This document shows, one piece after another, positions 42,429 through 63,248 of a stretch of DNA of 64,000 nucleotides (positions within the stretch are counted from its first letter, which is position 1; every line of letters begins with the position of its first letter). The position numbers and the translations under genes were made by a program. The notes under the pieces were generated by a model. That model ran no database searches and was not told the origin of the DNA. It saw only the letters and a list, made by a program, of their open reading frames with translations. The stretch is from Alphaproteobacteria bacterium (GTDB lineage: Bacteria > Pseudomonadota > Alphaproteobacteria > JBFXJJ01). Location: contig JBFXJJ010000004.1 in assembly GCA_050175015.1 (NCBI GenBank), forward strand, positions 1-64,000, read 5' to 3'.

Positions 42429-43397
42429 TTAGGTTACTTCGGTAACAGCCCTTAGGTTACCTTCGCGGTTAATCTGCACAACTCTGAGTTTTTCTCTCAT
42501 TTCAGCAATAGTTTTTACTCTATCAATCGTAGGGTACGTGTGCAAAATACGATCACAAAAAGCCTTATAGGCCTGCTCTGAACTTTCGGCGTGGATAGTT
42601 GCAAAACAGTTATCGTGACCAGAACCCATAAGTTCCCATAGCGCTCCGGCGTTAGCCGTTGAAATTTCACCGCCGATAATAGCATCAGGAGTAAAACGCA
42701 CTATAAGGTCAATAACTTTAGCATAGTTTAAGTTGTTTGTCTGCTCTGTTCTGGAAAGAACAACGTGAACTCTATTTGGATGGGGAACAATAAGTTCCCT
42801 TGTATCTTCAACTGTTATAACCCGTTTATGAATATCAAGTATCTTCAAAAGATTGTTTAAGAATGTGGTTTTACCTGTTGCCGTAGCACCACTGACTAAA
42901 ATGTGATCGCCACGCTTAATAGATAAGAGCAGTCTTTCATAAGGATCGTCTGGCATTTCTATTTCTTTAAGAGCATTAATACGGTGAAGTCTTTCGCCTT
43001 GTCTTAAACCATAATCCTGCAAACCAAATGCAACATCGTCGGCGTGAACACGAATAGCTAAAGAAACACCGCCTGTTAAATCCTTATTATCATACATTAC
43101 GTTACGGCCGCATATCGCAGAAAAACGGTGATCTCCAGGCAATGTCGCATACAGCACAGGAGTTCCTCTTTCTGGATCAAAATCAAGCTCATATGTATTA
43201 GCAATAATATGGAGTAAATCATTTAAATAGGTACGAGATAGTTTGGGGTCTTTCTGACAAGCCCAAGGATGCGCTCTTTTACCTCTAAGTCTAAGCCAAA
43301 TCTCTCCAGGACAATTAATTGCGACTTCTTCAACATTATCTTGGTTATACCAATATGAAAGATTACGTAGAACAGATTCTAAAACAAAAAAAGACAT
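42429..43397 (-). CDS. virB11: VirB11-family type IV secretion ATPase
   Basis: EEVAIN.PG, Walker A GATATGKTT, Asp box TVEDTRE, Walker B RFTPDAIIGGE and His box SGH...TIHAES; follows the VirB10-domain gene. Confidence 0.88.
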   Translation of the reverse strand: MSFFVLESVLRNLSYWYNQDNVEEVAINCPGEIWLRLRGKRAHPWACQKDPKLSRTYLNDLLHIIANTYELDFDPERGTPVLYATLPGDHRFSAICGRNVMYDNKDLTGGVSLAIRVHADDVAFGLQDYGLRQGERLHRINALKEIEMPDDPYERLLLSIKRGDHILVSGATATGKTTFLNNLLKILDIHKRVITVEDTRELIVPHPNRVHVVLSRTEQTNNLNYAKVIDLIVRFTPDAIIGGEISTANAGALWELMGSGHDNCFATIHAESSEQAYKAFCDRILHTYPTIDRVKTIAEMREKLRVVQINREGNLRAVTEVT

Positions 43398-43416
43398 TTT
43401 TAACCTCCATTAAACG

Positions 43417-46400
43417 CTAAAATAATTCAACGCTTTGACTTGCTGACGGAGCTGGCGCTGTTGTTTTGCTACCAGCTGTAGTTCCCTGTTGCCCTGTGGC
43501 CTGAGGAGTTGTCGTGGTTGTCGACGACGAAGGCCCTGGAGGCGGAATATAAGGCGTTACAACTTGCTGCTGAGTACCATCTTGGGCTCGTGGCTGAACG
43601 TCCATATCAAGCGTTCTTCTATCAAGTCTTTCTTCTTCTTCCTGCTTATCTCCAAAGAGACGGCTCTTACCATCATCAGTAACTCTAGATTCATTATATT
43701 TTGTAATAAGTTCTGTTGCAGCTGTTGCCGCATCCTTAAGCCATAAATCTGTTCCTGGGAATACCGTAAGTCTTGTACCTGCTGGGATAAACATAACAAT
43801 ATCCAAATTGCCAACATCTTCCAGAATATCGGTAAAAATTTCGTTGAATTTTTCTTTAAAGTCATCACGAGCATCATTCGCGGCTTCAGCTTTAGCCGAT
43901 AACGTTGTTACACCATCTGAAGTTGACGTTTCATCATCTGTAGTTAACAAATAAAGAACAGCACCACTGCCAATAGATGATAACAAAGGCAAACCATAGC
44001 GTCTAACAATCTGTAAATCCACATATCCTACAACACCACCGCGTCCTTGAGCATCACCCGATACCGAACCTTCTAAATCAAACGCAGCCCCATCTGGCCT
44101 TATAAGTCTTGACCACGTAATTTGGACTTTAGGTGAAGCCTTAGAGTTAGTGTCAGCACCAGAGACCTGCCCCATTAAACGGCTTCCAGATGGTATGACA
44201 ATATTGCGGCCATCATCACCATAGATATTTCTCTCAACTACAGCGGTTACAGGCACAGGATTTCGAGAATCATACGCTCTTACAAGAACGGCTGGAATAG
44301 GTTTATCGGCAGCAATCATATTGCTTCGGTCAACAGGAAGTGTAGACATAGCCTTGCTCCACTGCAAATCAGACCAATCTATACCTTTTCCCTGTTTTAT
44401 TGCTTCTAAGCGTTTTATAAGTTCTTCATTCCCTCTGTCAAAGCTTGACGGAATATTTGCAGGAATAGCCTTTGCCATTCTTGCTTGCTGCATTCTTCTA
44501 AGAAGCGCTAAATTGTCATTACTATATCTTTCTCCTGGTCCAAAACCGCCGCCTGGACCAAGATAGCCTCCAGGTCCCTCGCCTGTACCGTAAAGTCCCC
44601 CATTGCCAGTTGTTCCTTTAGGAACAAAGAAACCATCTGTTTTTTCTTCCTCGTCTTCAACAACTATGGCTTCTTTATCTTTAAATTTTTTACGGTCTTC
44701 TTCCAAAGCTTCTTCGACATCAATTTTTTCTTTATAGCCATACATCAGTTCTTCAGGAATAACTTCTGGAAGAGGAAGATTGCGCCAGTCTCTTCTGATA
44801 TAGCCCATAAGATTATTATCCTTATCGAAAGCCTTACCTTCCTGATTGACACTACCTATAATCATATTGTTAACATCAAAAACTGCATTCTTAGCATTCA
44901 TAATACCAACATAACGATTTTGTAAGTCTCTAACAAAATTATCGGGATCGGCGAAACCTTGAACCACATTATCATTATCGCCAAAAAGACCATTAGGATA
45001 AACCCTGCCAATTACGCCACCATTATAACCTATAACTTGGCTATCAGATCTCATAATACCTGCAATTCTTCCTGATTTATCAAATATAAATAGACCTTTA
45101 TCCAAAGAACCTGCGATTTTTTGGTCTTTATCTAGAATTAAATCATCTTGAGGTTCACCCAAAACATCACCTGCTTGATTTTCTGGCTTATTATCAAAAG
45201 AATAACGTCCAACTATAGTACCAGCAGCGTTTCTTATAACTCTATCGTTATAAACTGCGCCGATGGTTTTGCCAGACACATCTATTACTAAACCGTCAGG
45301 AAGAGCTGTTCCAACAAACTCATCTTTATCATTAACCGTTCTTCTATCAGGCAAAGCCTTTGCTACCCAATCGCCTCGAGCATCAAGAACCCTCCAGTAG
45401 TTACCCTCTTTTACTGGCGGTTTTGTGCCTGAGAAATAACCAATAATACTTCCTTCAAGATCGATAGCAACACCATCATAATTCAACTTGCCGATAATCT
45501 TGCCAAAGTCATCTCTAACCCACCGGTCTCCACCAGCTAAAACTTCACCAACAACCTCTTGTTTGCTGTTAATGACAACTTTATCTGCCCTTGCCTGTCC
45601 TATAATAATATTAGTTTTAGGTTCAATAACAGTACCATCAAGCAAATGCACACCGATTACTTTTCCCGTTGGGTCTAAAACAAAGTTAGTATCTGCAAGC
45701 TTTTGTTCATCAACAAACAAGTTTGATTTATAAATAACGTTTTCTACTTTATTATAAGCAATATTATCTTTCTTGCTTATAAGATGTCCTATTATGTTCT
45801 GCTCAAAATCTAGAACAGTACCGTCATTTTTAATCCGTCCTATTTCTTTATTATTCAAATTAACCACAGTGCCATCAACATTGGCTATTCCAATAATTTT
45901 CTTATCTTGATTAATGATATACCCATTAAAAGCAGTTGTTCCGATAATCTTTTTATTATGATCTACAATATCGCCACTGAGCCTTACATGACCCATATTT
46001 TTGCCATGTTCATCAAAAACATAGCCATCTTTCTTGATTTCACCTATAGTTTGGCCTAATTTATCAATAGCAAGACCACTTGGAAGAAGCTGACCAACAA
46101 TATTATTCTCGGCATTTCTAATGTTCTTCTTATCATAAACAGCGCCAATAATACGACCGTCAGAATCTAATACTGTACCATCATATTGAACCTGTCCTAT
46201 CTGCTTCTTGTCAAGATCATAGGCTTTCCCATCAGCGGTTATTCTTCCAAGAATTTCATCATCTCGGTCTCTAATTAAGTCATCAGATATAATCTCGCCC
46301 AACAGAAAATTATCATTATCAACAACACGATTATCGGGCATAATTTTACCAATATCTCTTAGATTATTATCTAGAACTAAGCCGTTAGAAAGCATTCGTC

Positions 46401-48699
46401 CAATCAAGTGCCCTTCAAATCCTAAGGCTAAAGCGCTTTGAATAACCCTGCCAATTACTTTTTTTTGCCCATCTATAACCGTTTTATTGGGAAGCGTTCT
46501 TCCTATAATGCGGCTTTTATCATCAACGACATCACCATTATAAAGAACCCGTCCTAAATATTCCGTATCAAGACCGATAACATCACCTAATGGCACAATA
46601 GAACCGACAGGTTCAGTCCTAGAATCAAGAACAACACCGTTTTTAACAACACAGCCAACCACTTCGTTTTTAGCTATGTTAATAACTTTGCCCGAAGGAT
46701 TAGCTACACCAATAACTTCACCATTATCATCAATAGCTATGCCCTTTTCTAAATAAGAGCCTATTACCAACCCCTTATTATTAACGACTTCCTTATTCTG
46801 CAAAACCCGTCCAATGTTGATTCCTCTACGGTTTTTTACACCGCCATCAGTCTCAATAACACCAAGTAAATCGCATTGATCACTTACCGCTTGTCCAAAG
46901 GGAATGACACTTGCAATTAATTCACCATTGTTATCAATAACATTGTTATCGTCGATTACACGCCCAATAGAATATCCTGAGGGATCTACTACAGAGCCAT
47001 CTAACCTTAGACGACCGATAACTTTTCCACCTTGGACAACAATTCCATCTTGGATAACTCGCCCAAGTACAGGCATAAAATAATCTGATTTTCCTTCTTT
47101 GTATGCCACGACCGAATTATCTGCCAATATTTTAGCGCTTATTTCGCGCTGATTATTTAAAATATTGCCGTCAGGCATAACAGAACCAATTGTGTAGCCT
47201 TTGTTATCAACCGCGAGCCCGTTTTCTACCACCTTGCCAATAAATTGTCCCTTGGAATCAAAAACGTTGCCATACCATAACGCTTTTCCTAATTCTTTAT
47301 TGTCATTGGTAACAACCCTGCCGTTTTCTAAGACTCTACCTATTAAAGCTCCATTAACGCCTATAACATTGTTTTCGTGGATAATACTGCCCTTAACCGC
47401 TCCCGTATCATCAAAAACTATCCCAAAAAAGCTTGTTTTACCCAATTTAGCGTTTTTCTCTATGTAACTGCCATCAGGAGCAACCTTATCAACAACACTG
47501 CCATCTAACCCAACAATAAGACCTTCATCAAGAACCCCGCCAAGCATCTTACCTGTGCTATCAACTGCCATTTTATTAGGATTAGCAACACCTATATTTT
47601 TTCCTAAATAATCAGAAACACTACTATTGGCCATAACATGGCCTTTAATATTCCCGACAGAATCAAAAACAATACCTTTCGGCGCAACACCACCTTTAAT
47701 TGCTCCTTGGGTATCCATCATCAAACCATTAGGCAAAACACTTCCTACAATTTTTTTATTGGAATCAGCCACATTGCCATCAGGCATAACTTGCCCTATG
47801 AATTCACCGTCAATATTAACAACTACAGCTCCTTCTCTAACCAAAGTTCCTAAATAGTTGCCTCTTTCATTAATAACGTGCCCCCTAGGAAGCACACGTC
47901 CAATGCTTATTTCTTCATTACTTATTACTTGGCCATCTATCCTAGCTCTGCCTAGGTATTCTCCTCTGCTTGACAGAGCAAAACCTAACGGCATAAGCTC
48001 ACCAAAGACCTTGTCTTCAATCGATTTAGCAGTGTTAGCAAAAACCATTTTACCAACGATCTTGTTATCTGATGATGTAATAGAACCGTCAGGCATAATC
48101 GAACCTATAACATCTCCGTTATAAGATGCGACAGTTCCTTGATAAAGAATGCTTCCTATGGGCAAATCAGCTTCAACCTCAACAGGTGACTTACGATAGA
48201 CAGTACCATCAGGCATAACATAACCAGTTTTAATACCTCGATTGTCAACGAAATCACCCTCAGAAATAACTCTGCCAATAACTTCACCAAAACTATCAAT
48301 TACTGGAGCTGGTTTTATAACCCTTCCTATAATATTGTTAGCCTTGTTAAAGACCGTACCATCAGGAGCAGCTTTTCCAATATTTTTGCTGGTTTTAGAA
48401 CTAACCGTGCCATCAGGCATAACTCTTCCTAAAACTTTTCTATCATTAGCAATAACAACACCTTGAGAAAGCAGCCCGCCTATAATTTTTTTGCTTTTAT
48501 CGATAACATATCCATCAGAAAGGAGCATACCTATAACGTCTTCATTATTATCAATGACAACACCATCAGGCATAACATAACCAAGAAAACTACCATCTAA
48601 AGCAACAACGGAATCTTGATTAGCGCAGGCAATATTAGAGCGCAAGGTTAGCATCAAGCCAACCATCAAAAGCACCAATTTTGCCCTTAGTATCCTCAA
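43417..48699 (-). CDS. virB10: Giant VirB10/TrbI-domain protein with about 1270 aa of N-terminal beta-repeats
   Basis: TTG start with SD GGAG; signal-like N-terminus ending ACA; ~17-aa DGxVxDxxGxxIGxV repeats. C-terminal VirB10 motifs IPAVL, VERNIYGDDGRNIVIPSGSRLMG, ITWSRLIRPDG, DAQGRGGVVGYVD, antenna helix and IPAGTRLTVF. Confidence 0.85.
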   Translation of the reverse strand: MRILRAKLVLLMVGLMLTLRSNIACANQDSVVALDGSFLGYVMPDGVVIDNNEDVIGMLLSDGYVIDKSKKIIGGLLSQGVVIANDRKVLGRVMPDGTVSSKTSKNIGKAAPDGTVFNKANNIIGRVIKPAPVIDSFGEVIGRVISEGDFVDNRGIKTGYVMPDGTVYRKSPVEVEADLPIGSILYQGTVASYNGDVIGSIMPDGSITSSDNKIVGKMVFANTAKSIEDKVFGELMPLGFALSSRGEYLGRARIDGQVISNEEISIGRVLPRGHVINERGNYLGTLVREGAVVVNIDGEFIGQVMPDGNVADSNKKIVGSVLPNGLMMDTQGAIKGGVAPKGIVFDSVGNIKGHVMANSSVSDYLGKNIGVANPNKMAVDSTGKMLGGVLDEGLIVGLDGSVVDKVAPDGSYIEKNAKLGKTSFFGIVFDDTGAVKGSIIHENNVIGVNGALIGRVLENGRVVTNDNKELGKALWYGNVFDSKGQFIGKVVENGLAVDNKGYTIGSVMPDGNILNNQREISAKILADNSVVAYKEGKSDYFMPVLGRVIQDGIVVQGGKVIGRLRLDGSVVDPSGYSIGRVIDDNNVIDNNGELIASVIPFGQAVSDQCDLLGVIETDGGVKNRRGINIGRVLQNKEVVNNKGLVIGSYLEKGIAIDDNGEVIGVANPSGKVINIAKNEVVGCVVKNGVVLDSRTEPVGSIVPLGDVIGLDTEYLGRVLYNGDVVDDKSRIIGRTLPNKTVIDGQKKVIGRVIQSALALGFEGHLIGRMLSNGLVLDNNLRDIGKIMPDNRVVDNDNFLLGEIISDDLIRDRDDEILGRITADGKAYDLDKKQIGQVQYDGTVLDSDGRIIGAVYDKKNIRNAENNIVGQLLPSGLAIDKLGQTIGEIKKDGYVFDEHGKNMGHVRLSGDIVDHNKKIIGTTAFNGYIINQDKKIIGIANVDGTVVNLNNKEIGRIKNDGTVLDFEQNIIGHLISKKDNIAYNKVENVIYKSNLFVDEQKLADTNFVLDPTGKVIGVHLLDGTVIEPKTNIIIGQARADKVVINSKQEVVGEVLAGGDRWVRDDFGKIIGKLNYDGVAIDLEGSIIGYFSGTKPPVKEGNYWRVLDARGDWVAKALPDRRTVNDKDEFVGTALPDGLVIDVSGKTIGAVYNDRVIRNAAGTIVGRYSFDNKPENQAGDVLGEPQDDLILDKDQKIAGSLDKGLFIFDKSGRIAGIMRSDSQVIGYNGGVIGRVYPNGLFGDNDNVVQGFADPDNFVRDLQNRYVGIMNAKNAVFDVNNMIIGSVNQEGKAFDKDNNLMGYIRRDWRNLPLPEVIPEELMYGYKEKIDVEEALEEDRKKFKDKEAIVVEDEEEKTDGFFVPKGTTGNGGLYGTGEGPGGYLGPGGGFGPGERYSNDNLALLRRMQQARMAKAIPANIPSSFDRGNEELIKRLEAIKQGKGIDWSDLQWSKAMSTLPVDRSNMIAADKPIPAVLVRAYDSRNPVPVTAVVERNIYGDDGRNIVIPSGSRLMGQVSGADTNSKASPKVQITWSRLIRPDGAAFDLEGSVSGDAQGRGGVVGYVDLQIVRRYGLPLLSSIGSGAVLYLLTTDDETSTSDGVTTLSAKAEAANDARDDFKEKFNEIFTDILEDVGNLDIVMFIPAGTRLTVFPGTDLWLKDAATAATELITKYNESRVTDDGKSRLFGDKQEEEERLDRRTLDMDVQPRAQDGTQQQVVTPYIPPPGPSSSTTTTTPQATGQQGTTAGSKTTAPAPSASQSVELF
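44790..48620 (-). repeat. Degenerate ~17-aa (51-nt) coding repeat array in virB10
   Basis: Continuous PDGxVxDxxGxxIGxV-like units, roughly 70-75 by length estimate; boundaries approximate. Confidence 0.85.
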
Positions 48700-48702
48700 A
48701 TA

Positions 48703-51700
48703 CTATCTCCTCAATATACTTGAAAGCTGCGTAACAATTCGTCCTTCAACTTTGCCTTCTAAGTTAACAAAAGTACCATCACCTCTAATTAGTCCCACAT
48801 TCTTGCCGTCACTTCTTGCAACAGAACCATCGAGCATTACTCTTCCTATAATCTTGCCGTCTTGTCCCATAACAACGGAACCAATAGGGAGAACTCCACC
48901 AATGACGTTTCCAATAAGATTAACCACGGTATTATCAGGTAGTGCTCGACCAATTATATTATTATTAGTATCTATGATTTGTCCATTTATTCTAACAATT
49001 CCAATAACTTTTCCCTCAGCATCAATTGCCATACCTCTGTTTATAACTTTACCAATAACCATATTAGTTTCAGTCATAACCATACCATCAGATAAAACCT
49101 TTCCTATCTCTAGCCCCTTTTTATCAAGGACTGAGCCTGATGGCGTTGCAATACCTATAATCTCTCCGCCGTGGTCAACAACAACACCTCTTGGCATTTT
49201 AAAACCAAGATTATCCATAACAACCCCGTTAGGAAGCATTGTGCCTAATTTGTTGCCTATTTTGCTAACAGCATTACCATCAGACAAAATACGGCCGACA
49301 ACTTCACCATCAGTATCTATCGCTATTCCTTCTTCAACAACTTTTCCAATAATCTGCCCCCTGTTGCTTAGAACTATACCGTCAGGAGCAACAGAACCAA
49401 CAATCATACCATTAGGATTTACAACCATACCATCAGACAACGCATTACCTAAATATATGCCATCGGCTCCAATTACAACTCCCTTGCTGACGACACCGCC
49501 GATTATACTGCCATCATTTTGCAAAACCAAACCATCGGGCAGAACTCTCCCCAAGACCTCACCTTTGCGATTAACAACCTTGGCATTATAATTTGTAACA
49601 CCATATAAAGATGTATCCATTTTAATCGCTGTACCATACAACGTTGGTTTGCCTATTATACCTCTATAAAAACCCAAACCGTCGCCATAAATACTGCCTA
49701 TTTTTATTCCCTTTTTATCATAAACCGTTCCATCAGCTAAAAACTGACCCAAAACTTCGCCATTAAAGTCAGTGATATAACGGCGGCTTTCGATAAAACC
49801 TCCTAAAGCCTCACCTTTTTCATTAATAATGGTACCATCAGGCATAGTTCTCATAACACCATTGCCAGTAGCTTCACCTATCTGACCATCATCTTTAAGC
49901 CCGCCAAGCGCTCTGCCGTCAGACGTAAAACCAAAGCCATCTTTTAAAACTCGGCCTACATACGCACCATTTTTAGCAAAGACATCACCTTCAAAGTTAG
50001 CACAACCTAATTGTTCTTGTTTCTTATTTTCGACAATCCCATCTTCCCTTACTTTGCCAAGAACAACGCCATCAAGTCCTACCGCAACGGCACCTTTGTC
50101 AACGACACCACCGATTATATCATTATTATGATCAGTTACGGATCCATTAGAATTTACACAACCTATAACATCGCCTTTTTCATTGTATACCTTGCCATTA
50201 ACCCTAACATCTCCAATAACACGGCAGCCAACTGCAACAACTTTGCCCATAGGCATTAAGGAGCCAAAATAATTGCCAGACAAGTCTTCTGCTGTGCCAT
50301 CAAATAAGATGCGCCCTACAATTTTAGCTTTTTCTCCTATAATTTCGCCATTATCGTTAACAACACCTCGCATATCACAGCCCATATCAACAACAGGCCC
50401 ACCAGAAACAGCTTGTCCCACAACTTGTTCATTAGAATCTAAAATAGCGCCATCATAACGAACACGTCCGATGGTTGCATTTTCACGATCATTAACTCTT
50501 CCATCAGGCAAAATGCGGCCAACAAATTTTCCTCCTGGACCTATAGCTATACCTGTTGGAGCTAAACCTCCTATAATTTGCTTATCAAGTCCAACTATTC
50601 TGCCGTCTGGAAGCATATTGCCTATTATATTGCCTTTGCCATCAACGACATCGCCATTTTCTAGAACCTTGCCAATAATTTTACCATTATCGTCTCTTAC
50701 TATCTGTTCGTCTTTTTGAGTATGACCTATAACACTTCCATCTAAATCGACTATAAGACCATCTTTATCACGCTTGCCAATAACATTGCCATTTAAATCA
50801 ACCACATCGCCATTTGGCATAACCCTTCCTATAAGTTTGCCATTTTCATCATAAACAGGAGTTCCAAGACAAATGCCGCCAATAACTCGACCACGAGTAT
50901 CTACAATCTTGTCATCTTTTCTAACCGCTCCAATAACATTACCCTCGAAATCGACAACAGAAGAATCTGCTTTAGCTGTTCCTATAACTTGGTCGTTTAA
51001 GTCACACGCAAGCCTATCTTTCATATCGAGATATCCGATAGCATTGCCATCTAAATCAACAATGCTTCCATCAGGCAACATTTTACCTATGACATTACCA
51101 TCTAAATCGACAACAGTTCCGTCAGGAAGAACTCTGCCAATAATATTGCCATTTACATCTCTTACAAATTGGTCATCAGCACCAAGCAACCCGATTTCTT
51201 CGCCATTTAAACCGACGACTTTTCCATTAGGCAGAACTCTACCTATAATATTGCCATCAGGGTCAAAAACAAACTTCTCGTTACCATCAACTTGCCCAAT
51301 AACATTGCCATCTAAATCAACAACCGTACCATTAGGTTTCATATTGCCTATAATATTGCCATTCATATCAAGCACTTTATTATCAGGCCCCAATCTGCCA
51401 ATAATATTGCCATTTAAATCTCTGGCATAATCTTGACTTCCTATTCTGCCAATAATGTTGCCATTCGCATCAACTACCGTACCGTCAGGAAGCAATCTCC
51501 CAATAACATTGCCGTTAGCATCAACCACTGTACCATCAGGCAGCGCCCAACCTATAATGTTACCGTTCTCATCATATATTGGAATTCCTAATCGGCCAAT
51601 TTCTTTGCCATTTAAATCAACGACAGAACCATCATCATTAGCTTTTCCTATAACCTTGCCGTTTAAATCCAAGGCTGTTCCATCAGTTAAAACCCTGCCT

Positions 51701-54852: not shown

Positions 54853-55563
54853 CTATTTAATGCTGCCGCCCATTGATGTTCCATCATTACGTCTAAAAGA
54901 AAACTCTACAACCGTAAAGCCTAAAGGATTTTTTAAACGCTCCTCAAAGGGAACTCGTTTTCTTCTAAAAATTATTCTCAACTGCGCTGTCCAATTTGTT
55001 ATTGTTGGGACTTCGGTTGTCGGCGTAATATCTGTCGTTTCATATTCCACCTGCCAAATTCCTTTGGACAGTTCATTTGAACTTAGTATTTTTACATCTC
55101 TTGTGAGTTTTTGACTACTTATTATTGCTAAAACCTTTTTCGCATTTTCTAAAAAGGATTGATAAACTGCTGGTGCTGACATTTCTTGCATTGGACCGTT
55201 ATCAAGCCATCTTGCTTTCATTTCTTCCATATCATCAACAAAAGTATTGCTGATGAGAATATACTGGCGAACAAACGCCTCAGAAACAGTTCTGTTTCCT
55301 GTCAAATCAACTGCGTGTCTAATATTTACAATCTGTCTTTCTTTGTTGCTAAACGTCACCAAAAAAGGCTCTATTCTTACAAGAGGTACTATTTGGAAAA
55401 TTGTAATAATTAAAACTATATTGCACAAAAAACTGACAACAGAAACAAGAGCGAAGGCTCTTGCTGTCCACAAATAACGTCTTTCAGCTAAACTTTCCGC
55501 AGAATAGCTGCTCAAGTATTCACTATCTTGAGAACCGTTTTCTTGTTCAATTTCTTGCATCAA
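54853..55563 (-). CDS. virB8: VirB8-family protein (copy 2)
   Basis: Single TM, PLVRIEPFLV, FVRQYI, MSAPAVYQSF, WQVEY and C-terminal RLKNPLGFTVVEF signature. Confidence 0.85.
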   Translation of the reverse strand: MMQEIEQENGSQDSEYLSSYSAESLAERRYLWTARAFALVSVVSFLCNIVLIITIFQIVPLVRIEPFLVTFSNKERQIVNIRHAVDLTGNRTVSEAFVRQYILISNTFVDDMEEMKARWLDNGPMQEMSAPAVYQSFLENAKKVLAIISSQKLTRDVKILSSNELSKGIWQVEYETTDITPTTEVPTITNWTAQLRIIFRRKRVPFEERLKNPLGFTVVEFSFRRNDGTSMGGSIK

Positions 55564-55570
55564 TAAAACC

Positions 55571-55771
55571 TTAAACTGCGGCTTCAGTTAACCATTCAGG
55601 AAGTCCTGGAAGCATCTCAACTGGCATACAAGCACAAGGAGAAACTTTTAATTCCGCAGGATCTTTACCAAAACTTACTGGCTCAGGTTCATAGATTGAA
55701 CCTGGGATACAAGAGGTACATAAAAAAACCGAAATAAGTAACAAAAATTTTTTCAACATAATTCTCACCAA
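55571..55771 (-). CDS. virB7: VirB7-like small lipoprotein
   Basis: Lipobox CTSC; short mature chain with LKVSPCAC, resembling the (K/R)SPC motif of Rickettsiales VirB7; located between two virB8 genes. Confidence 0.65.
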   Translation of the reverse strand: MVRIMLKKFLLLISVFLCTSCIPGSIYEPEPVSFGKDPAELKVSPCACMPVEMLPGLPEWLTEAAV

Positions 55772-55993: not shown

Positions 55994-56710
55994 TTAATTG
56001 TTAGTTACAACTTCAGACTGAGCATATCTTGTAACAGTAAAACCTAGCGGATTTAAAAGCAAATTAGTATAAAGCCTGCGATCTTTCCTAAAAATACATT
56101 CAACAGAAGCTGTCCAATTTCTTATAATGGGTTTCATTAAGGCTTCTTGCATATCATATGTTTTAAAATCAACCTGCCAAACAGCACTTCGACCTATCCT
56201 TTTTACTCCTACAATTTTTACTTCTCTGTTACTATGCTGCTCTAGAAATTTAATAATTCCTTTTTTATCCATTCGGTATTTTCTATAAATTTGAGGCGTA
56301 GATAAGAAGAAAACTATTCCTCCTGGAGAAAGCAGGCGAACCATTTCTCCTGGATCTTCAACAATAGTATTCAGAGATTCAACAAAAAGTCTTATAAAAT
56401 TCTCGCGGACAATTTCTTTAGATGGAATGTTAGGATTTGCATGTTCAATACGAGCAATATCCTTAGATTCTTTAAAATCAAGTAAAAACAATGGATCAAC
56501 ATCTATCTGCGGGACAATTTGAAGCAATGATAATGAAAACAAAACATTTCCAACTAACATAACCATTGCTAAAAGGGTAAATAAACGCGCCAGCCACATG
56601 TAATACATGCGGCGTGGCGGTATATTTTCTTCTCTTCCCATACCAAGAAAACTTAAAGGAAGATTTGGTTTAACGTTATTGTCAGTAACAAGTACTGAAT
56701 TTTCGGCCAT
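55994..56710 (-). CDS. virB8: VirB8-family protein (copy 1)
   Basis: Single TM, VPQIDVDPLFL, FIRLFV, LSTPQIY, WQVDF and NPLGFTVTRY signature; clear paralog of 54853-55563. Confidence 0.83.
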   Translation of the reverse strand: MAENSVLVTDNNVKPNLPLSFLGMGREENIPPRRMYYMWLARLFTLLAMVMLVGNVLFSLSLLQIVPQIDVDPLFLLDFKESKDIARIEHANPNIPSKEIVRENFIRLFVESLNTIVEDPGEMVRLLSPGGIVFFLSTPQIYRKYRMDKKGIIKFLEQHSNREVKIVGVKRIGRSAVWQVDFKTYDMQEALMKPIIRNWTASVECIFRKDRRLYTNLLLNPLGFTVTRYAQSEVVTNN

Positions 56711-56736
56711 TACTTAACTCTTTCTAAAATATTCCT

Positions 56737-58320
56737 TTAGAATGATGAACAACCTGTATCAATACCCATTCCTTCTAAAAGAGCAATTACTTGAGCGTCT
56801 AATTGAGCATCAAATTCTAAACTTTCTAAACGTTCTTGTAAATTAGTTAAAATAGCCTCTTTTATTTCGTCAGCAGAATCATCAGCAATGTTATCTGTAA
56901 TGCTGAGCATAGCTTCAGTATCAGCACCAAGTGCACTAAAGATTGATTCCACAACATTTGCCCTGCTCTCAACAACATCATCTATAGTGCTGTCAAGAAC
57001 GCCTGTAGCATTAGATGCAATTTCATCGTCAATATTTGTAAGCATATCTTCAACTGAAGCCAAGCTAGCTTCTTTATATGCCTTCAAAGCAGCAACAGCT
57101 TCTTCAAATTTAGTTGCATCAATAACTTCTAAACCACTAGAAATGTTATTATAGCCAAATTTTGAAAGTTCAGCCTTAAGTGTAACATCTAGTTCAGCAA
57201 GTGCTTTTTCGGCATTATCTCTAACTTCATGAAGCATCATTTCCTGTTTTCTAAGCTTCATCCATTTACTAATGCGATTTTCATCTAAGCAGTTATTAGA
57301 ATTATTTTCACAAACCTTATAATCATTCCTATTAGAACTTACGCTGAGTTTAACATCTTGATCAACAAGAATATCACTTGAATCATAATTCTTGCTTAAA
57401 TCATAAATTTGACCAAACTCACCCTTGTCCTCAAGCTTAGTGTACTCACCATAAAGTTTTTCACCTGTGGCAAGATTAAAATAAAGCGTCCAAGTATCAG
57501 GCATACCAGAATAAGGTGTTAAACTAGCATTGTTTTCATAAGGTTCAAAATAAACAAACTCCTTATATGGAGGCAACGGTGTTGTCAGAACTTTTTCTTG
57601 GTTAATCCCCGTAGTAGCTCCGCAACTAGCTGTCTTAGTTGGGTGACCAAACTCATCATAATCATAATAAGGGTCTTTTTTACACTTACTATATTGATCA
57701 TAAAGTTCTTGTTGATCTTCCCATAATGGGAATTTATTTTTTACATCTCCCCACTTGCTTTGATCGGCATACAAATCTACTAATAAATCTTTGCCAACAT
57801 TCCAAAACAAACGATCATGTTCTTTCATTTCTGCATCGGTAGCAGTACCTGCATCATAATCCATTTTGGCAAGTTCTTGATTGTATTTTTTTATCGCCTG
57901 CCCTGTAAGTCCGCCTCTTAATGCATATTCATTAGCTTCTGCACCGTCCATATTTTTACCATACCAAACTTCATCAGGATTAGAATAATATGTAGAAAGG
58001 CGAGCAATAGAACAAGCATCATTTAGCCTTAAGGCTTCTAGTGCAGCATTGTGTTCCTCAATGTTCTGTTGGTATCTTTCGATAAGAGCAACATCATCAT
58101 ACAATGTATTAAGCGTATTGTGAGCTTCCATTGCATCTTGAATTGTTTCTCTTGCCTCTGTGATATAATCTAAAACATTGGCTTTCTCTGGATTAGTAGC
58201 AACCTCTTTGGCTGTAACAAAAGAGAACCCGCTACTTGAGGCAGCTTCAATATTTTTAGCTGGAATAGAAATAGCTGTTATCAATGCTACTGTTAAAAAT
58301 AATCGATTTTTATACCACAT
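56737..58320 (-). CDS. Secreted acidic, largely helical hypothetical protein of the T4SS locus
   Basis: Signal peptide ending IEA, SD AAGGA, long ORF co-oriented within the locus; no recognisable family motif. Confidence 0.75.
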   Translation of the reverse strand: MWYKNRLFLTVALITAISIPAKNIEAASSSGFSFVTAKEVATNPEKANVLDYITEARETIQDAMEAHNTLNTLYDDVALIERYQQNIEEHNAALEALRLNDACSIARLSTYYSNPDEVWYGKNMDGAEANEYALRGGLTGQAIKKYNQELAKMDYDAGTATDAEMKEHDRLFWNVGKDLLVDLYADQSKWGDVKNKFPLWEDQQELYDQYSKCKKDPYYDYDEFGHPTKTASCGATTGINQEKVLTTPLPPYKEFVYFEPYENNASLTPYSGMPDTWTLYFNLATGEKLYGEYTKLEDKGEFGQIYDLSKNYDSSDILVDQDVKLSVSSNRNDYKVCENNSNNCLDENRISKWMKLRKQEMMLHEVRDNAEKALAELDVTLKAELSKFGYNNISSGLEVIDATKFEEAVAALKAYKEASLASVEDMLTNIDDEIASNATGVLDSTIDDVVESRANVVESIFSALGADTEAMLSITDNIADDSADEIKEAILTNLQERLESLEFDAQLDAQVIALLEGMGIDTGCSSF

Positions 58321-58349
58321 TTCCTTAGCTCCTTAAAAGTAATCCATAA

Positions 58350-59159
58350 TTATTGAAGCGACTGCAAAACTGGCGCATCTGACGGATTAGAATTCAACAA
58401 CATTTTCTTAAATGACTCACGACGTTGTTTTATAGCTTCCAACTCATTTTTCTGTGTTAAAACCTTGTTTAAAAGAGCTTTTGCTAAAACATTGGTTTTA
58501 GTAATCGTATTTAAATCGGCAGCTTCATCTATCTGTTCAACAAGAGCATCTATCTGATCTCTAGTATTATCCAAGTCTTTTTGAATAATAGCCAACCTAG
58601 AAAAGATACTAATAGCATCAACTTGGCTCGTTTGCTGTCTCATTAGCATTTGATGAGAAACTTCATCAAGAGTGCCAGAAATTTTTGTTGTGAAACTACC
58701 TTCAACAGCAGAACCGACACTAAGAGGATCCTCTAAATCAATGCTTGAACCACTTGATTTCAAACCGCTAATAGTAGCACTAAAAGCACTATCAGAAGAA
58801 ACACTACTCTTCAAAAGAGAAAGTTCTGGTACGCCTGTGATTTCCTCATTGTCGCCCATAACACCTTTTCTTAAATAAGTATTATAATCTGAAACTTTCT
58901 TTTCTAAATCGTTGTCTCTCTCATCAGCAAGATCTGTTCTCTTTTTGGCTGTATTTATAGCTTTTGTTTCTTTAAAGTCTAAAGGCTTATTGGCCTCCAG
59001 AGCCATACAAAACTGACAACAAATACAAGCGCATGATGTACAGGGGTATGGGCAACAGCACCATATTACTATACACAAATTACAAGCGAACGAACTTTTC
59101 AATGGTATTGATACCATCATTAAAAGTGCTGCTAAAAAACTTAACATTTTGCGACGCAT
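58350..59159 (-). CDS. Secreted VirB5-like protein with a Cys-rich N-terminal cap
   Basis: Signal ending SFA, then CNLCIVIWCCCPYPCTSCACICCQFC; C-terminal RDQIDALVEQIDEAADLNTITKTN resembles the VirB5 helix-loop-helix. Start uncertain (59195, 59159 or 59147). Confidence 0.6.
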   Translation of the reverse strand: MRRKMLSFLAALLMMVSIPLKSSFACNLCIVIWCCCPYPCTSCACICCQFCMALEANKPLDFKETKAINTAKKRTDLADERDNDLEKKVSDYNTYLRKGVMGDNEEITGVPELSLLKSSVSSDSAFSATISGLKSSGSSIDLEDPLSVGSAVEGSFTTKISGTLDEVSHQMLMRQQTSQVDAISIFSRLAIIQKDLDNTRDQIDALVEQIDEAADLNTITKTNVLAKALLNKVLTQKNELEAIKQRRESFKKMLLNSNPSDAPVLQSLQ

Positions 59160-59210
59160 GGCTTTGCTCCAATAAACTTTGTTTAACTTTTTCAAAATAA
59201 ACTTTTACTA

Positions 59211-60695
59211 CTATTTCCAGAAATTAAACGTATCTTTCTTAATCAACTTATCAGCATAACTGTCAACATCAGTATCTTTTAACGCATTTCCAGTTACATC
59301 AGAATCTTTTACACTCTGAACTTTTTCACCCAAAGCGTCACCTAATCTAAGCGGCATTTCAGATATATCCCTGAGCATTGCTGTTCTAATTTCCTGCGTT
59401 TCTAATTCAACAAGACTTAAAAGAATTTCTGTTTGAATTATAACGGCAACAGAGTTAGCTCTCCAAGCTTCGGCTAAACTTATCACAGGACCGTCGCCGC
59501 TACTTGAAGAAGATGAACCTCCTGAACTACCAGAACCTGAACTGCTATTGTTTCTATCTTCAATTTCGCTAGCATCAATCTCACCCAATGGATCAATCTT
59601 TTTACCATTTTCATGGAGTTCCAAGTGAAGGTGGGCACCAGTTGACATACCTGTATGTCCAACCTGACCGATAACCTGTCCTTTGGAGACCTTTTGACCA
59701 GGACTTACACCAACACTATTCATATGAGCGTAAAGTGTTGAATAACCATTGGCGTGCTTGATTTCAACGCGGTTACCATAACCACCACCACAACTACGAT
59801 TACCTTCAACACACCCAGTAACAACAGTTCCAACGGTTCCATCACCCGCAGCGTGAAGATCAGTACCTTTTGCTGCTGCAATATCAATACCACCATGGTT
59901 ACTTTGTTTTCCTGTTACAGGGTGAACACGAGGACCAAATTTAGATGAAATACGACCACTACAAACACCAAGAATATCTAAATCTAAATCTTTTTTCTCT
60001 TCATCAGCCTCTTCTTCTGGTTCTTCCTCTTTCTCTTCTTGTGTTTCTTGCTTAGATGCTGTCGTTACCGTAGCATCAGATGGAATTTTCAAGTATTCAT
60101 CAAGAACTTTATTAATTTTATCTGTAAAAACGCCATCAGCCACAGCCTTTTTGGCTCTAAGGGCTTCAGCATAAAGAATTGATAAATTAGTTTTATATAA
60201 ATCTTGCCTTTTTGAGAAAAGTCCCTGAACCAATTCTCCAGACATAGCACCGCTTGAGTTAATAAAGATATCACTATTACCAGTTACAAACCCCGCAACA
60301 CTATCAATCGAACCAGAACCTTCTTCTGAAAGCATACTGTTAAGTTCTTCGGTCTTAGCATCTGATAAAAATGGTTTACCGCCTATTTTACCTAAACCTT
60401 TGCCGAGTTTTTCATGATCACCCAACAAATTACGATCAGATGTCTTATCTAGGATTTCCTGCCAATTATCTCCTATTTTAGCTTTTAATAAAGCATCTAG
60501 GGATTCTATCTCGCTAGAAATCTGCTTATTTAATTCTTTATCGGCCTCAAGGTTTTCTTGTCTAGCGCTATCTCTTGCACAATCAGGACCGCTCCAAGCC
60601 TTTGCTTCTTCTGAATAGGCAAAAGCAAAAGTCAAAAGAACTAAATATATAGTTTTAATAATATACTTTGTCATAAAATTCATGTCCTTTTCCAA
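59211..60695 (-). CDS. Secreted VirB5-like protein with an inserted M23 metallopeptidase domain
   Basis: Signal ending AKA; M23 motifs ISSKFGPRVHPV, HGGID, GYGN, YAHM, STGAHLH and IDP, flanked by acidic and Ser/Gly linkers. M23 call is strong; VirB5 call is inferred. Confidence 0.75.
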   Translation of the reverse strand: MEKDMNFMTKYIIKTIYLVLLTFAFAYSEEAKAWSGPDCARDSARQENLEADKELNKQISSEIESLDALLKAKIGDNWQEILDKTSDRNLLGDHEKLGKGLGKIGGKPFLSDAKTEELNSMLSEEGSGSIDSVAGFVTGNSDIFINSSGAMSGELVQGLFSKRQDLYKTNLSILYAEALRAKKAVADGVFTDKINKVLDEYLKIPSDATVTTASKQETQEEKEEEPEEEADEEKKDLDLDILGVCSGRISSKFGPRVHPVTGKQSNHGGIDIAAAKGTDLHAAGDGTVGTVVTGCVEGNRSCGGGYGNRVEIKHANGYSTLYAHMNSVGVSPGQKVSKGQVIGQVGHTGMSTGAHLHLELHENGKKIDPLGEIDASEIEDRNNSSSGSGSSGGSSSSSSGDGPVISLAEAWRANSVAVIIQTEILLSLVELETQEIRTAMLRDISEMPLRLGDALGEKVQSVKDSDVTGNALKDTDVDSYADKLIKKDTFNFWK

Positions 60696-60710
60696 TTGTT
60701 ACCTTGAAGT

Positions 60711-61406
60711 CTATTCACTCTTTGTTGCCAAACTTTCAGGATCACTTGTAGCAACCAAAGATGAGAAGCCTGAACGTTCAGAATTGCCTGCCATCAAAAA
60801 GAGCTGAGCAACAAGCAGATTGTTATACATAAGATCTAATTTATTAGCGTGCTTTATTGTGCAATCGATTGTCTTACACTGATTAACTGCCTCGATAACC
60901 TTATCGATAGTTTCTTTCATTTTGTTATTATATTCAATAACAGAAACAACCTGACCATAAGACATCGAACTCATCAAATTTGACATTTGATTTTTCTTTT
61001 TAGAGGCTTCATTGTAATTAACTGAATTGCCTGAGTTAAAAATAACTTTAATATCGCTTATAAATTTTTCAGCTGCGGCATCTGGATCATCTGCCATCGA
61101 TGCAGCCGTGTCAGAAGTATCGCTAGGAACAATAGGTCTAAACAATTCTAACTTAAGTGTTGAAACATCATCAAAAAGACCATCTGAAGAAAATGTACCA
61201 TAAGTTTTCTCAATAAGCTTCATTTCATCAAGAGAGTTTTGTATCAAATCAGTCCTATCATATTCATACTTCTTTTCTTCATTAAGAGTATCTTGATCAT
61301 CTTGGTCGCTTATAAAGCCAAGAATTGCGGAGTGAGCCCTTGCTTCATTCGAGGCAATAGTTACCAAAGCCAAGATTGATAAAAATGAAAACAATCGTTT
61401 TAACAT
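60711..61406 (-). CDS. Secreted helical protein, VirB5-like paralog
   Basis: Signal ending ARA; C-terminal helices (KETIDKVIEAVNQCKTIDCTIKHAN) align by eye with neighbouring genes. Confidence 0.6.
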   Translation of the reverse strand: MLKRLFSFLSILALVTIASNEARAHSAILGFISDQDDQDTLNEEKKYEYDRTDLIQNSLDEMKLIEKTYGTFSSDGLFDDVSTLKLELFRPIVPSDTSDTAASMADDPDAAAEKFISDIKVIFNSGNSVNYNEASKKKNQMSNLMSSMSYGQVVSVIEYNNKMKETIDKVIEAVNQCKTIDCTIKHANKLDLMYNNLLVAQLFLMAGNSERSGFSSLVATSDPESLATKSE

Positions 61407-61442
61407 AATCGAAATCCCTTTCTTAGTAAAATTTTGCCTCTA

Positions 61443-63248
61443 TTACTTCTTATTAACTTCCCACTCTAACGCACCTTCTCTAATGATAACAGCGGTTGAA
61501 ACTTCTAAATAATTAGTATAAATTTCAAGCATCTGTTTAGCATAAAGAGTATTACTTAGCGCCAAGAGGTTACCATTAGCTAAATCATCTCTAATTGTAG
61601 ACGAAGTAGAAATTGTCTTTTTTAAGTCCTCTGATGTTTTGAGAACCTGTTTAGCCGTAGATCTAACAGCAATAGCTCCACTAAAGGCCTCACTAGTTGC
61701 ACCTTCGAGTAAAACTCTAGCATCTTCCACGTTTTCTTTATATTGTTTTGCAGTGAGATCTTCACTTCTCTTTAAGAAACTTTCCACTTTTGATTTAACG
61801 GTATCAGCATTTTCATAACTATCTTTGCTTATACCCCATTTCTTGAGCGTATCATTGTCCTTAATTGTCTTAGCTACACCTTTGAAATTGCCTTCCATTG
61901 AGTTTTTCAAATAATCAAAAGTTGACTTTCCTGGAGTGCCTATTTTGTTATAGGTGCTTTCTAACATATCATTAATTTCGACATATTTTTTAATCTGCTG
62001 CACACCATTTTTGACGATATCGGTAGTTGTCGAAACAGCTTTGGTATCGGTAACAGGATAGTTACAAGGAGCACAACCGCCACCACCGCCGCCAGCAGAA
62101 GAAAGTCCGCTGCTAACACTAGATGTAACACCAGAAGCTAAAGAACTAACATCCGCTACACTACTCAAACTATCTGTTAAGTTGCTGACATCGGCTAAAC
62201 TGCTTAAATCGGCACTTCCCATTAAATCTGACAATGAACCAAGATCAGCTATACTGCTTAAAGCTCCAGTATCAACCAAATCTTTTAAAGCTCCCATATC
62301 TGCCAAATCTTTCAACGCACCAAGATCTGCAATATCCTTAAGAGCGCTAAGATCCGTCAAATCTTTTAAAGCTCCAAGATCTGTTAAATCTTTTAAAACA
62401 CTCAAATCAGCCAAATCAGTTAGATTACCAAGATTAGCAAGATCTGTAATTGAACTTAAATCTGCCAAATCTTTTAAACTACCAATATCAACCAAATCCG
62501 TTAATGTACTTAAATCACCCAAATCTTTGAGAACACCCAAGTTGGTTAAATCAGTCAATGAACTTAAATCAACCATACTTGTTAAAGAGCTTAAATCTGT
62601 GAGTTTAGAAAGAGAATCTGTATCTAACAAACTAGTTAATGAACCAAGGGCTGCCAAATCTTTCAGACCTCCCAAGTCACCGATGTTAGCCAAAGAGCTC
62701 AAACTTGCTATTGAAGATAAATCTTTTAAAGAACTTGTTAGATTTTCAATATTAGCAATATTTTTTATTGAATCTAATCCACTAGTAAGGGCTCCAATAT
62801 CTGCCAATTTGGTTAAAGAGTCCAAACCTGCGATATCGCTCAAGGAACTTATATTTGTTAAGTCCGATAAAGAACCGACATCAACCAATTTTGTTATTGA
62901 ACTCAAATCTGACAAGTTTGATAAAGAGCTTATGCTTTCCAAGACACCGGTGTTAGTTAAGTCAGTGATGTCTTTTATAACCCCTAAATCAGCCAATTTA
63001 GATAAATCATCTAAAGAGCCTGCATCGGCAATCTTCTGCAAAGCTTCAAGATCAACGTTTGACAAAGACTTGCTATCAAGCCCCATACTTGATAATGTGC
63101 TTTCTAATTCACTGCTGACTGCTGTTTGAGCGGTGCTTTTAGCTGAACTAGCTACATTTGATAAAACACTATCTACGTTAGCTTTTGGTGATACAAAAAC
63201 TAAAAATGTAAAAAGCATTAATGTAGGAACAAAAAATTTTACTTTCAT
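61443..63248 (-). CDS. Secreted protein with a 9-aa Asp/Leu/Ser repeat stalk and C-terminal VirB5/TrbJ-like domain
   Basis: Start at ATG 63248 after AAGGG; signal peptide; DLGALKDLT-type repeats; poly-Gly linker, CAPC, PVTD and a helical C-terminus. Confidence 0.7.
   Translation of the reverse strand: MKVKFFVPTLMLFTFLVFVSPKANVDSVLSNVASSAKSTAQTAVSSELESTLSSMGLDSKSLSNVDLEALQKIADAGSLDDLSKLADLGVIKDITDLTNTGVLESISSLSNLSDLSSITKLVDVGSLSDLTNISSLSDIAGLDSLTKLADIGALTSGLDSIKNIANIENLTSSLKDLSSIASLSSLANIGDLGGLKDLAALGSLTSLLDTDSLSKLTDLSSLTSMVDLSSLTDLTNLGVLKDLGDLSTLTDLVDIGSLKDLADLSSITDLANLGNLTDLADLSVLKDLTDLGALKDLTDLSALKDIADLGALKDLADMGALKDLVDTGALSSIADLGSLSDLMGSADLSSLADVSNLTDSLSSVADVSSLASGVTSSVSSGLSSAGGGGGGCAPCNYPVTDTKAVSTTTDIVKNGVQQIKKYVEINDMLESTYNKIGTPGKSTFDYLKNSMEGNFKGVAKTIKDNDTLKKWGISKDSYENADTVKSKVESFLKRSEDLTAKQYKENVEDARVLLEGATSEAFSGAIAVRSTAKQVLKTSEDLKKTISTSSTIRDDLANGNLLALSNTLYAKQMLEIYTNYLEVSTAVIIREGALEWEVNKK
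62150..63070 (-). repeat. 27-nt / 9-aa coding tandem repeat
   Basis: DLSVLKDLT DLGALKDLT DLSALKDIA DLGALKDLA DMGALKDLV; degenerate toward both ends; boundaries approximate. Confidence 0.85.

Follow-up and report, generated by a model that had tools for sequence, protein, structure and literature searches.

A candidate type IV secretion core operon with a repeat-expanded VirB10 divided between two genes in an uncultured alphaproteobacterium

The rvh type IV secretion system (T4SS) of Rickettsiales is encoded by a dispersed archipelago of vir islets (Gillespie et al. 2009, PMC2653234). Other T4SSs are distinguished by enlarged subunits: in CagY of Helicobacter pylori and DotG of Legionella and Coxiella, long variable repeats precede a C-terminal TrbI/VirB10 domain in chains of 1,000-1,900 amino acids (aa) or more (PMC6761968). 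The beta-flower fold, a shallow barrel of about 96 residues defined from AlphaFold models and built from hairpins with a [DNEQ]xxG tip, has in turn been described with its function unknown (Durairaj et al. 2023, PMC10584680). All three accounts are drawn on here as far as their available sections go. We analyzed a locus with features of each of them, located in a 64,000-nucleotide stretch of alphaproteobacterial DNA, hereafter the window (C4:1-64000, where C1 to C49 are the contigs of this genome's assembly). The genome comprises 2.53 Mb in 49 contigs and is 99.4% complete. The locus consists of 12 genes, all on the minus strand at 42429-63281, which we interpret as the probable operon for the outer-membrane and periplasmic core of a complete, vertically fixed P-type (VirB/VirD4-like) T4SS, in which a repeat-expanded VirB10 has been split once.

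The operon starts with five genes for leader-bearing proteins (leaders and secretion were called by eye from the N-termini together with a hydropathy scan), followed by genes for a VirB8, a VirB7-like lipoprotein, another VirB8, a VirB9 that ends in SPOR, two giant proteins of beta-flower repeats (giant-1 and giant-2) and VirB11 (Table 1). The genes are closely packed, with gaps of 3-36 nt, a 4-nt overlap between virB9 and giant-1, and a single larger gap of 222 nt between the first virB8 and virB7. An initial annotation of this DNA had proposed 12 co-oriented T4SS-type genes set among housekeeping genes, with no relaxase or integrase nearby and no obvious compositional break. This description is borne out by Pfam and NCBIfam matches and by the layout of the open reading frames (ORFs), save that its end coordinate, 63248, is an internal ATG; the ORF of the outermost gene, sec1, opens at a TTG at 63281. 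The flanking genes encode asparaginase II (1.2e-89), a photolyase and ribosomal protein L28 (rpmB), and it is asparaginase II, not virD4, that comes after virB11. Profile searches of C4:1-64000 with PF03432 and PF08751 (relaxases) and PF00589 (integrases) returned no match, transposases not having been searched for; the nearest relaxase and integrase on the same contig are at C4:200948 and C4:203621. The G+C content is 0.39-0.40 across the giant genes versus 0.33-0.38 elsewhere in the window (about 0.35), a small rise that fits their Gly/Asp/Val-rich repeats.

Judged from their sequences, the two giant proteins are the halves of one VirB10. The initial annotation had described their repeat and VirB10 features as we find them, but had missed this identity. 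A search with VirB9 as query identified 203 species-level relatives, and we examined the loci of 80 of these, across which synteny is conserved. Among the readable loci, 57 have two consecutive giant genes, while 15 have a single gene directly before virB11. The unsplit genes encode VirB10 proteins of 1,930-2,831 aa, and both of the two that were scanned contain Bflower repeats and TrbI in one chain. Residues 7-206 of giant-1, which comprise its cytoplasmic tail, transmembrane (TM) helix and immunoglobulin (Ig)-like domain, can be aligned with the N-terminal part of one unsplit VirB10 of 2445 aa (31% identity, E 4e-28). A YxKKTN motif before the TM helix is found in 56 of the 57 first genes and in 14 of the 15 unsplit genes, and a post-leader motif is common to 56 of the 57 second genes in relatives.

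At the border between the two genes, giant-1 ends in ...RR-TAG, an AGGAGA Shine-Dalgarno sequence overlaps this end, and 6 nt further on a TTG at 48699 opens the leader of giant-2, MRILRAKLVLLMVGLMLTLRSNIACA. The two ORFs of the window share a reading frame, with only the TAG and one codon between them, as would be expected if a VirB10 gene had been inactivated by a nonsense mutation and the system were decaying. However, the same border occurs in the 57 other loci in all three frames, and in 16 of these 57 pairs the frame is shared, about as often as the one in three that chance would give. Conservation also extends over the 200 residues that flank the junction on each side, with mean column identities of 68% and 71%. 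With a Shine-Dalgarno sequence, a start codon and a signal peptide after the stop, a frame that varies among loci and conservation of both flanks, the TAG can be taken as a real gene border; the same leader, varying frames and conserved flanks exclude read-through of an in-frame TAG or a recent nonsense mutation. With the remaining components all intact as well, we consider a broken gene in a decaying system highly improbable. A complex prediction for the last 200 aa of giant-1 and the first 200 mature aa of giant-2, using alignments of 36 of 53 split relatives plus the window, gave a score of 0.00; run without controls, it speaks neither for nor against binding.

The distribution of split and unsplit forms fits a single fission event, to the extent that this can be read from gene trees. 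In a quick IQ-TREE analysis of concatenated VirB9, VirB8b (the second VirB8 of the operon) and VirB11, based on 43 rows chosen from 93, the 25 split rows fall on one side (Shimodaira-Hasegawa-like approximate likelihood ratio test 99) and 13 unsplit rows on another (95). The same groups were recovered by FastTree from all 93 rows, with supports of 87 and 92. The window is the second-earliest branch inside the split group. Fission is preferred over fusion given the outgroup rooting and the fact that the canonical VirB10 is a single chain.

The two halves differ in how they begin and end, and each is dominated by a repeat array. Giant-1 has a short cytoplasmic tail carrying the YxKKTN motif, a TM helix (aa 14-44), an Ig-like domain (aa ~91-172) and then repeats, while giant-2 has a cleavable-looking signal peptide, repeats, an acidic/Gly-rich linker, the TrbI barrel and a Pro/Ser/Thr-rich tail. 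The repeats span ~aa 230-1545 of giant-1 and ~aa 30-1330 of giant-2, in agreement with the approximately 2,600 aa of added repeats that had been reported for the pair. Both arrays have a 17-aa period with harmonics at 34 and 51, corresponding to ~77 units in giant-1 and ~76 in giant-2, and their Bflower_2 scores of 320.6 and 243.5 bits are far above the gathering cut-off of 38 (PF21785/PF21784, CL0395). A repeat-free outgroup VirB10 of 571 aa has an Ig-like domain at the matching place ahead of TrbI, which indicates that the repeats were inserted between the Ig-like part and the TrbI barrel. In a sister lineage (L113 and L114, from genomes G077 and G245 of ~0.9 Mb), an 835-aa VirB10 has TrbI and no beta-flower match; this lineage may mark the state before repeat expansion.

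These arrays resemble described proteins in part. With the beta-flower proteins they share the Bflower_2 match and the [DNEQ]xxG hairpin-tip pattern (PF21784/PF21785, CL0395; PMC10584680), but the proteins described in the available sections of that report are single small barrels, some of them lipoproteins, whereas each of the two subunits here holds the equivalent of ~15 flowers. The same sections place no beta-flower protein in a T4SS context, and our literature search, which left most subscription journals and supplements outside, found nothing linking beta-flower repeats, a split VirB10 or SPOR to T4SSs. With CagY and DotG the locus shares a repeat-expanded region ahead of a conserved TrbI/VirB10 domain. 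The single-chain layout of anchor, repeats and TrbI seen in those proteins is absent from the window but present in the unsplit relatives, with a different repeat family; CagY and DotG, as far as they are described in the source available, are single chains with other repeats (pentapeptides in DotG) that undergo intragenic recombination, in contrast to 17-aa beta-hairpins spread over two genes. At the DNA level, identity between repeat copies is only 60-77%, and no copy exceeds 181 nt (77% identity), so that recombinational resizing of the CagY kind is not expected, and we rejected it. This longest copy is a segmental duplication inside giant-1 (51431-51611 and 51890-52070), and the ~50-residue peptides that it encodes are nearly identical.

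The neighboring core genes fit the same type of machine. The C-terminus of VirB9 resembles a SPOR domain: the match is weak for the window protein (E 0.0045 for the whole protein, 5.3e-4 for the tail alone), but 40 of 42 aligned VirB9 tails (41 of the 91 available plus the window) match SPOR, the best at 5e-07, and the final ~80 residues are the best-conserved part of the tail, with 15 invariant columns in the 42 sequences. The match is weak in the sister group with the 835-aa VirB10, and SPOR was undetected in four outgroup VirB9s and in the VirB9 of a Microvirga plasmid discussed below. The two VirB8 paralogues are 30% identical to each other. The VirB7-like ORF has no Pfam family, and its identity is drawn from its size, leader and conserved position; it is kept between the two virB8 genes, with 81 relatives' ORFs matching at E values down to 4e-19. 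VirB11 matches PDB entry 2gza, a VirB11, at 5e-16 and is 80% identical to its orthologue in relative G018; its TIGR02788 match (6.6e-42) lies under the NCBIfam curated cut-off.

The rest of the machine was found on other contigs, in line with the earlier suggestion that virB2, virB3, virB4 and virB6 lie elsewhere in the genome, although VirB6 remained below cut-off and VirB3 is positional. A single-copy VirB4 (PF03135, 7.2e-14, above cut-off; C9:16403-18898) is part of an islet at C9:15578-19118, together with a 96-aa ORF with two TM segments ahead of it and a gene for a 241-aa leader-bearing helical protein after it. The 96-aa ORF is VirB3 by position and resembles ORFs preceding virB4 in two other T4SS loci. 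Four tandem genes for polytopic VirB6-like proteins of 414-706 aa are at C3:194804-202395, and two tandem VirB2 pilin genes lie on C24 among fatty-acid and cell-wall genes. There are VirD4 paralogues on C3 and C16 (43% identical) and a third VirD4 on the small contig C33, where it adjoins a relaxase fragment. The VirB8, VirB11, VirD4 and VirB2 assignments are all above Pfam cut-offs. No second copy of VirB9, VirB10 or VirB11 was found in the genome by tblastn, nor was a second VirB4 or AAA_10-type ATPase. From this parts list the system appears to be complete, and with no further VirB4 or AAA_10 ATPase detected it stands as the sole one of mating-pore type found; a relic without VirB4 or VirB6, an outcome that the initial annotation had allowed for, is hard to reconcile with VirB4 on C9 and VirB6-like genes on C3. 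The C16 VirD4 (C16:23239-26280) is, at 1013 aa, ~265 aa longer than the C3 copy, and its start codon coincides with the end of a preceding 409-aa ORF.

The 241-aa protein encoded after virB4 occupies the canonical virB5 position and is one member of a family that we call B5dom. It aligns with the C-terminus of sec1 (BLAST, 25% identity, E 1e-14), and although a single-query homologue search with it found only itself, a jackhmmer search seeded with it gathered 148 ORFs, among them the sec1 C-terminus (7e-40); we therefore regard B5dom as a real family of paralogous helical domains. In relatives, most first-position proteins have two copies of the domain and second-position proteins have one. 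An AlphaFold2 model built from an alignment of the 241-aa protein with the C-terminus of sec1 and 44 of the 51 single-domain relatives has a predicted local distance difference test score (pLDDT) of 67. The proposal of a modular VirB5-like array at this locus stands in so far as one helical domain recurs, whereas the likeness to VirB5 is one of position and no VirB5 fold was found. Alignments of B5dom with sec2, sec4 and the M23 protein gave hhalign probabilities of 1%, 0.3% and 5%, none of them significant, so that modularity holds for sec1 only; residues 154-185 of the M23 protein bear a weak, non-significant resemblance to the B5dom motif. Pfam VirB5 likewise fails to match the positional VirB5 candidates of other T4SS loci, suggesting that the family is hard to detect.

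The T4SS appears to be widespread among relatives and inherited with the chromosome. A VirB9 orthologue (E<=1e-20) is present in 150 of 151 genomes and in all 20 genera of the order to which one split-type relative belongs, with genomes of 1.3-2.0 Mb; unsplit forms belong to other families and are absent from this order sample. The 203 relatives are uncultured Alphaproteobacteria by record label, bar a few odd bin labels, and the layout is common to many uncultured gut Alphaproteobacteria. Together, these counts support the vertical inheritance proposed in the initial annotation, which had named a linked relaxase and a patchy distribution as the signs of an ordinary integrative and conjugative element; there is no relaxase in C4:1-64000, and the distribution is nearly complete. 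The 40 nearest genomes compared are all of the same class, and none is of the same genus, family or order as the present one. We place this genome as an early branch, representing a separate order, of a large uncultured alphaproteobacterial radiation. These observations fit an old, vertically kept chromosomal organ, though transfer into this genome's own lineage may have occurred. Identities to one unsplit relative (VirB11 80%, VirD4 70%, VirB9 45%) indicate that periplasmic and surface parts evolve much faster than the ATPases. Four of the loci (L036, L078, L099 and L101) carry Bacillota labels (Holdemanella biformis, Lactobacillales, Lactobacillaceae and Lachnospiraceae), probably through mis-binning or mislabelling.

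In textbooks, VirB10 exemplifies the bacterial protein that reaches across both membranes, relaying the energy state of the ATPases in the inner membrane to the gate in the outer membrane. We propose that in this lineage it gained ~150 beta-hairpin units between its N-terminal Ig-like domain and its C-terminal TrbI barrel and that, in the sub-clade including this genome, it was then cut once into two translationally coupled genes. Based on the TM anchor of the first half and the Sec leader and TrbI barrel of the second, the first half would remain anchored in the inner membrane, while the second would be exported by its own signal peptide and inserted into the outer-membrane core with VirB9 and VirB7. 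The two repeat arrays may meet in the periplasm and so restore the link between the membranes non-covalently; the canonical energy-sensing link would persist only if they do. The SPOR tail of VirB9 would tie the core to peptidoglycan. SPOR domains prefer the denuded glycan strands of division sites, and the tail suggests a septal or polar placement of the machine. The fast-evolving helical proteins of the B5dom and sec5 families could serve as pilus-tip or surface parts, and the M23 protein may cut peptidoglycan locally, in the role that VirB1 has elsewhere. The presence of pilins, VirB11 and two VirD4s points to contact-dependent export rather than DNA uptake, and the machine most likely delivers proteins, and perhaps DNA from the resident mobilisable islands as well, to the cells that it contacts.

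Several observations weigh against this interpretation in one part or another. The root of the tree, and with it the direction of the fission, hangs on long-branched outgroups. For B5dom as a VirB5, Foldseek returned 0 PDB hits at E<=1e-3, a PDB profile search gave only coiled-coil noise, and 1 of 46 B5dom members touches the Pfam VirB5 family PF07996 (1.4e-4). The 96-aa VirB3 candidate has no PF05101 match, and three of the VirB6-like proteins score 24.2, 23.0 and 21.7 bits against TrbL in a six-frame genome search, under the cut-off of 25.9. The assembly being in 49 contigs, a location elsewhere in the genome is not convertible into a distance. Finally, no effector was identified: the XVIPCD effector domain of Xanthomonadales-type bacteria-killing T4SSs (presumably PF20410) had no match in the genome in a search without positive control.

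An alternative explanation for the gene order is that the system belongs to the Rickettsiales rvh lineage by descent, the virB8 duplication and the dispersal coming from a common ancestor. The layout behind the "rvh-like" label of the initial annotation is real: like rvh, the system is chromosomal and inherited, has the order virB8-virB7-virB8-virB9-virB10-virB11, keeps virB3-virB4 and virB2 in islets of their own and has several enlarged VirB6 paralogues in tandem (PMC2653234), and adjacent VirB8 pairs occur in just 15 of 401 sampled genomes of the class (8 family codes), every such locus retrieved belonging to the present T4SS clade. The remainder of the likeness does not hold up. According to the available sections of the rvh account, VirB4 and VirB9 are duplicated there but single here; virD4 is arrayed after virB11 there but unlinked here, on C3, C16 and C33; virB6 follows virB4 in one islet there but is on a different contig here; and VirB5 is missing there, whereas a gene is present in the VirB5 position here, its VirB5 identity being positional. 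Here, moreover, VirB10 is repeat-expanded and split, VirB9 has SPOR, and the host, as far as its 2.5-Mb genome suggests, does not depend on life inside cells. Nor do the subunits point to Rickettsiales. The nearest solved structures for VirB8b are ordinary VirB8 chains (4lso/4mei at 1.4e-05, and 2cc3), VirB8a has no PDB sequence match at E<=0.01, and the best named relatives of VirB4 are on Hyphomicrobiales and Sphingomonadales plasmids (34-37.5%), ahead of Candidatus Paracaedimonas plasmids (29-31%). A search for the ATP/ADP translocase family, run without positive control, found it in 0 of 5 candidate small genomes, none of which could therefore be recognised as a Rickettsiales reference. 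Overall, we consider descent from rvh unlikely. The closest named VirB4, with 37.5% identity over 92%, is that of Microvirga sp. VF16 plasmid pMVF16-3, which shares the families VirB2, B3, B4, B8, B9, B10, B11 and D4 but differs in having a contiguous relaxase-virB2..B11-virD4 operon with a MobA/MobL relaxase, one VirB8, a 590-aa VirB10 and a VirB9 without detectable SPOR.

This plasmid relationship also lends some weight to the possibility that the machine is chiefly a conjugation pore, used with VirD4 by integrative mobilisable elements that have no pore of their own. The genome has 8 PF03432 relaxase matches above cut-off and 1 below, on 9 contigs. Six of them, on C2, C3, C4 (~200-204 kb), C8, C10 and C21, are 2-7 kb from a tyrosine recombinase with no coupling or pore genes nearby, and from their gene content these six pairs look like integrative mobilisable elements; further matches are on the small contigs C33, C34 and C35, and only the C33 relaxase has a VirD4 of its own. 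With 8-9 MOB relaxases, six beside integrases, and a sole VirB4-type system found, the "non-conjugative" label of the initial annotation is open to doubt, and DNA mobilisation is a serious alternative or additional role. On the other hand, a conjugation system would not usually be near-universal in an order whose genomes measure 1.3-2.0 Mb, the operon has no linked relaxase, and mobilisable elements normally borrow the pores of co-resident conjugative elements, which may be missing from the assembly. We judge conjugation as the chief function possible but rather unlikely. A role in predation or killing had also been suggested, with the machine acting as a bacteria-killing or epibiotic contact weapon and the M23 protein as a toxin against cell walls that is either delivered or carried at the tip. 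The M23 endopeptidase is encoded inside the operon and has intact-looking zinc motifs, and the small genomes of relatives are compatible with dependence on other cells. However, the M23 protein on which the suggestion was based has 0 homologues in relatives' loci and is thus not part of the conserved design; its Sec-type leader points to periplasmic action, no immunity gene is evident beside it, and the XVIPCD search above offered no effector. This makes a dedicated weapon improbable, more so than a conjugation pore.

If the proposed two-chain VirB10 is real, it would have several implications. Being widely conserved, it tests whether covalent continuity of VirB10 is needed, and each half holds ~1,300 residues of a fold so far known from predictions only; in the T4SS the beta-flower fold would acquire a functional context for the first time. 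The system itself is a core trait of a large group of uncultured alphaproteobacteria from gut, rumen and (here) landfill-labelled sources. It is also a candidate for a pore that the many mobilisable islands of this genome share, and knowing the delivered substrate and the target cells would tell how these organisms live. A more far-reaching picture, which we offer tentatively and think doubtful as a whole, is that, across a multi-order clade, the one T4SS subunit thought to require an unbroken chain between the membranes works as two proteins joined only by interlocking beta-flower arrays, which in 14 copies would add roughly 4 MDa to the periplasm, that SPOR fixes the core to the cell wall, and that this ever-present machine underlies a contact-dependent life of these small-genome bacteria as a free-living counterpart of rvh. 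The rvh label is used here for the resemblance in layout, and the lifestyle goes no further than a proposal. New in the present analysis are the whole-genome inventory, the order-wide count, the VirB9 SPOR tail, the B5dom family, the single-fission tree and the member from a different order.

Table 1. Genes of the T4SS core operon, in the order of transcription (coordinates refer to the window; aa, amino acids; TM, transmembrane helix).
Feature	Coordinates	Strand	Description
sec1	61443..63281	-	612 aa, leader; N-terminal D/L/S-rich short repeats; C-terminal helical B5dom aa 404-604
sec2	60711..61406	-	231 aa, leader, helical; sits where relatives have a single-B5dom gene
M23 protein	59211..60695	-	494 aa, leader; Peptidase_M23 aa 266-369 (3.2e-30) between helical regions
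sec4	58350..59195	-	281 aa, hydrophobic leader, Cys-rich stretch, helical C-terminus
sec5	56737..58320	-	527 aa; short member of conserved secreted family preceding first virB8
VirB8 paralogue a	55994..56710	-	238 aa, bitopic, TM aa 35-69; Pfam VirB8 1.9e-11
VirB7-like lipoprotein candidate	55571..55771	-	66 aa; leader ends in Cys residues
VirB8 paralogue b	54853..55563	-	236 aa; Pfam VirB8 6.7e-25
VirB9	53391..54845	-	484 aa; CagX 3.6e-16; SPOR-like C-terminus ~aa 405-484
VirB10 N-terminal half (giant-1)	48703..53394	-	1563 aa; Bflower_2 3e-97, weak ASH; no TrbI
VirB10 C-terminal half (giant-2)	43417..48699	-	1760 aa; Bflower_2 2.5e-73; TrbI/VirB10 aa 1462-1654 (1.9e-31)
VirB11 ATPase	42429..43397	-	322 aa; T2SSE 3.3e-21; TIGR02788 6.6e-42

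The leader-bearing proteins encoded ahead of virB8 are less uniform than the core. Relatives have an upstream order of proteins of ~500-600 aa, ~220-290 aa, ~400 aa and a large one (535-1855 aa), followed by virB8. No Pfam family was assigned to sec1, and neither a Pfam nor an NCBIfam family to sec2 or sec4. The large protein corresponds to the sec5 family, with 65 homologous ORFs in relatives' loci. An AlphaFold2 model of sec5 from a 30-row alignment (pLDDT 71, predicted template modelling score 0.70) has a long helical stalk and a small mixed head; a Foldseek search of the PDB with it gave 0 hits at E<=1e-3 (the best had E 0.32, and enterococcal PrgA ranked 19th at E 1.1), and an ESM Atlas search gave no usable match. 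For the M23 protein, the domain is MepM/ShyA-like in NCBIfam, and HxxxD and HxH, which we take to be the zinc motifs of M23 enzymes, were seen by eye. Weak matches to sec4 (best 3.6e-05) are found in ~251-aa proteins of 3 relatives' loci. The sec4 protein has 11 Cys, most of them within ~25 residues directly after the leader (CNLCIVIWCCCPYPCTSCACICCQFC), which is unusual for a periplasmic protein.

A few further observations concern related genes and the source of the DNA. Outside the operon, an extra VirB8-domain gene (323 aa, C6:29616-30587) lies beside pheT/pheS-like genes, and an extra 586-aa leader-bearing protein with two VirB8-like domains is encoded at C1:275519-277279; in relative G057 (L112), two VirB8 genes of the C6 type stand side by side. 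In the unsplit locus L047 (a scaffold labelled Acetobacter sp. CAG:977), DEAD-box-helicase-like and esterase-like ORFs, judged from their N-termini, directly precede virB8, which indicates that the upstream secreted array is not always linked to the core operon. The only public run matching window positions 48300-49100 carries the label landfill metagenome and is a possible source, while the relatives come from gut and rumen records. Past rpmB and just outside the window, C4:64036-65004 encodes a 322-aa leader-bearing protein that has no Pfam family but carries sec1-like repeats (35-37% identity over ~180 aa), so the array of secreted proteins may extend beyond rpmB.

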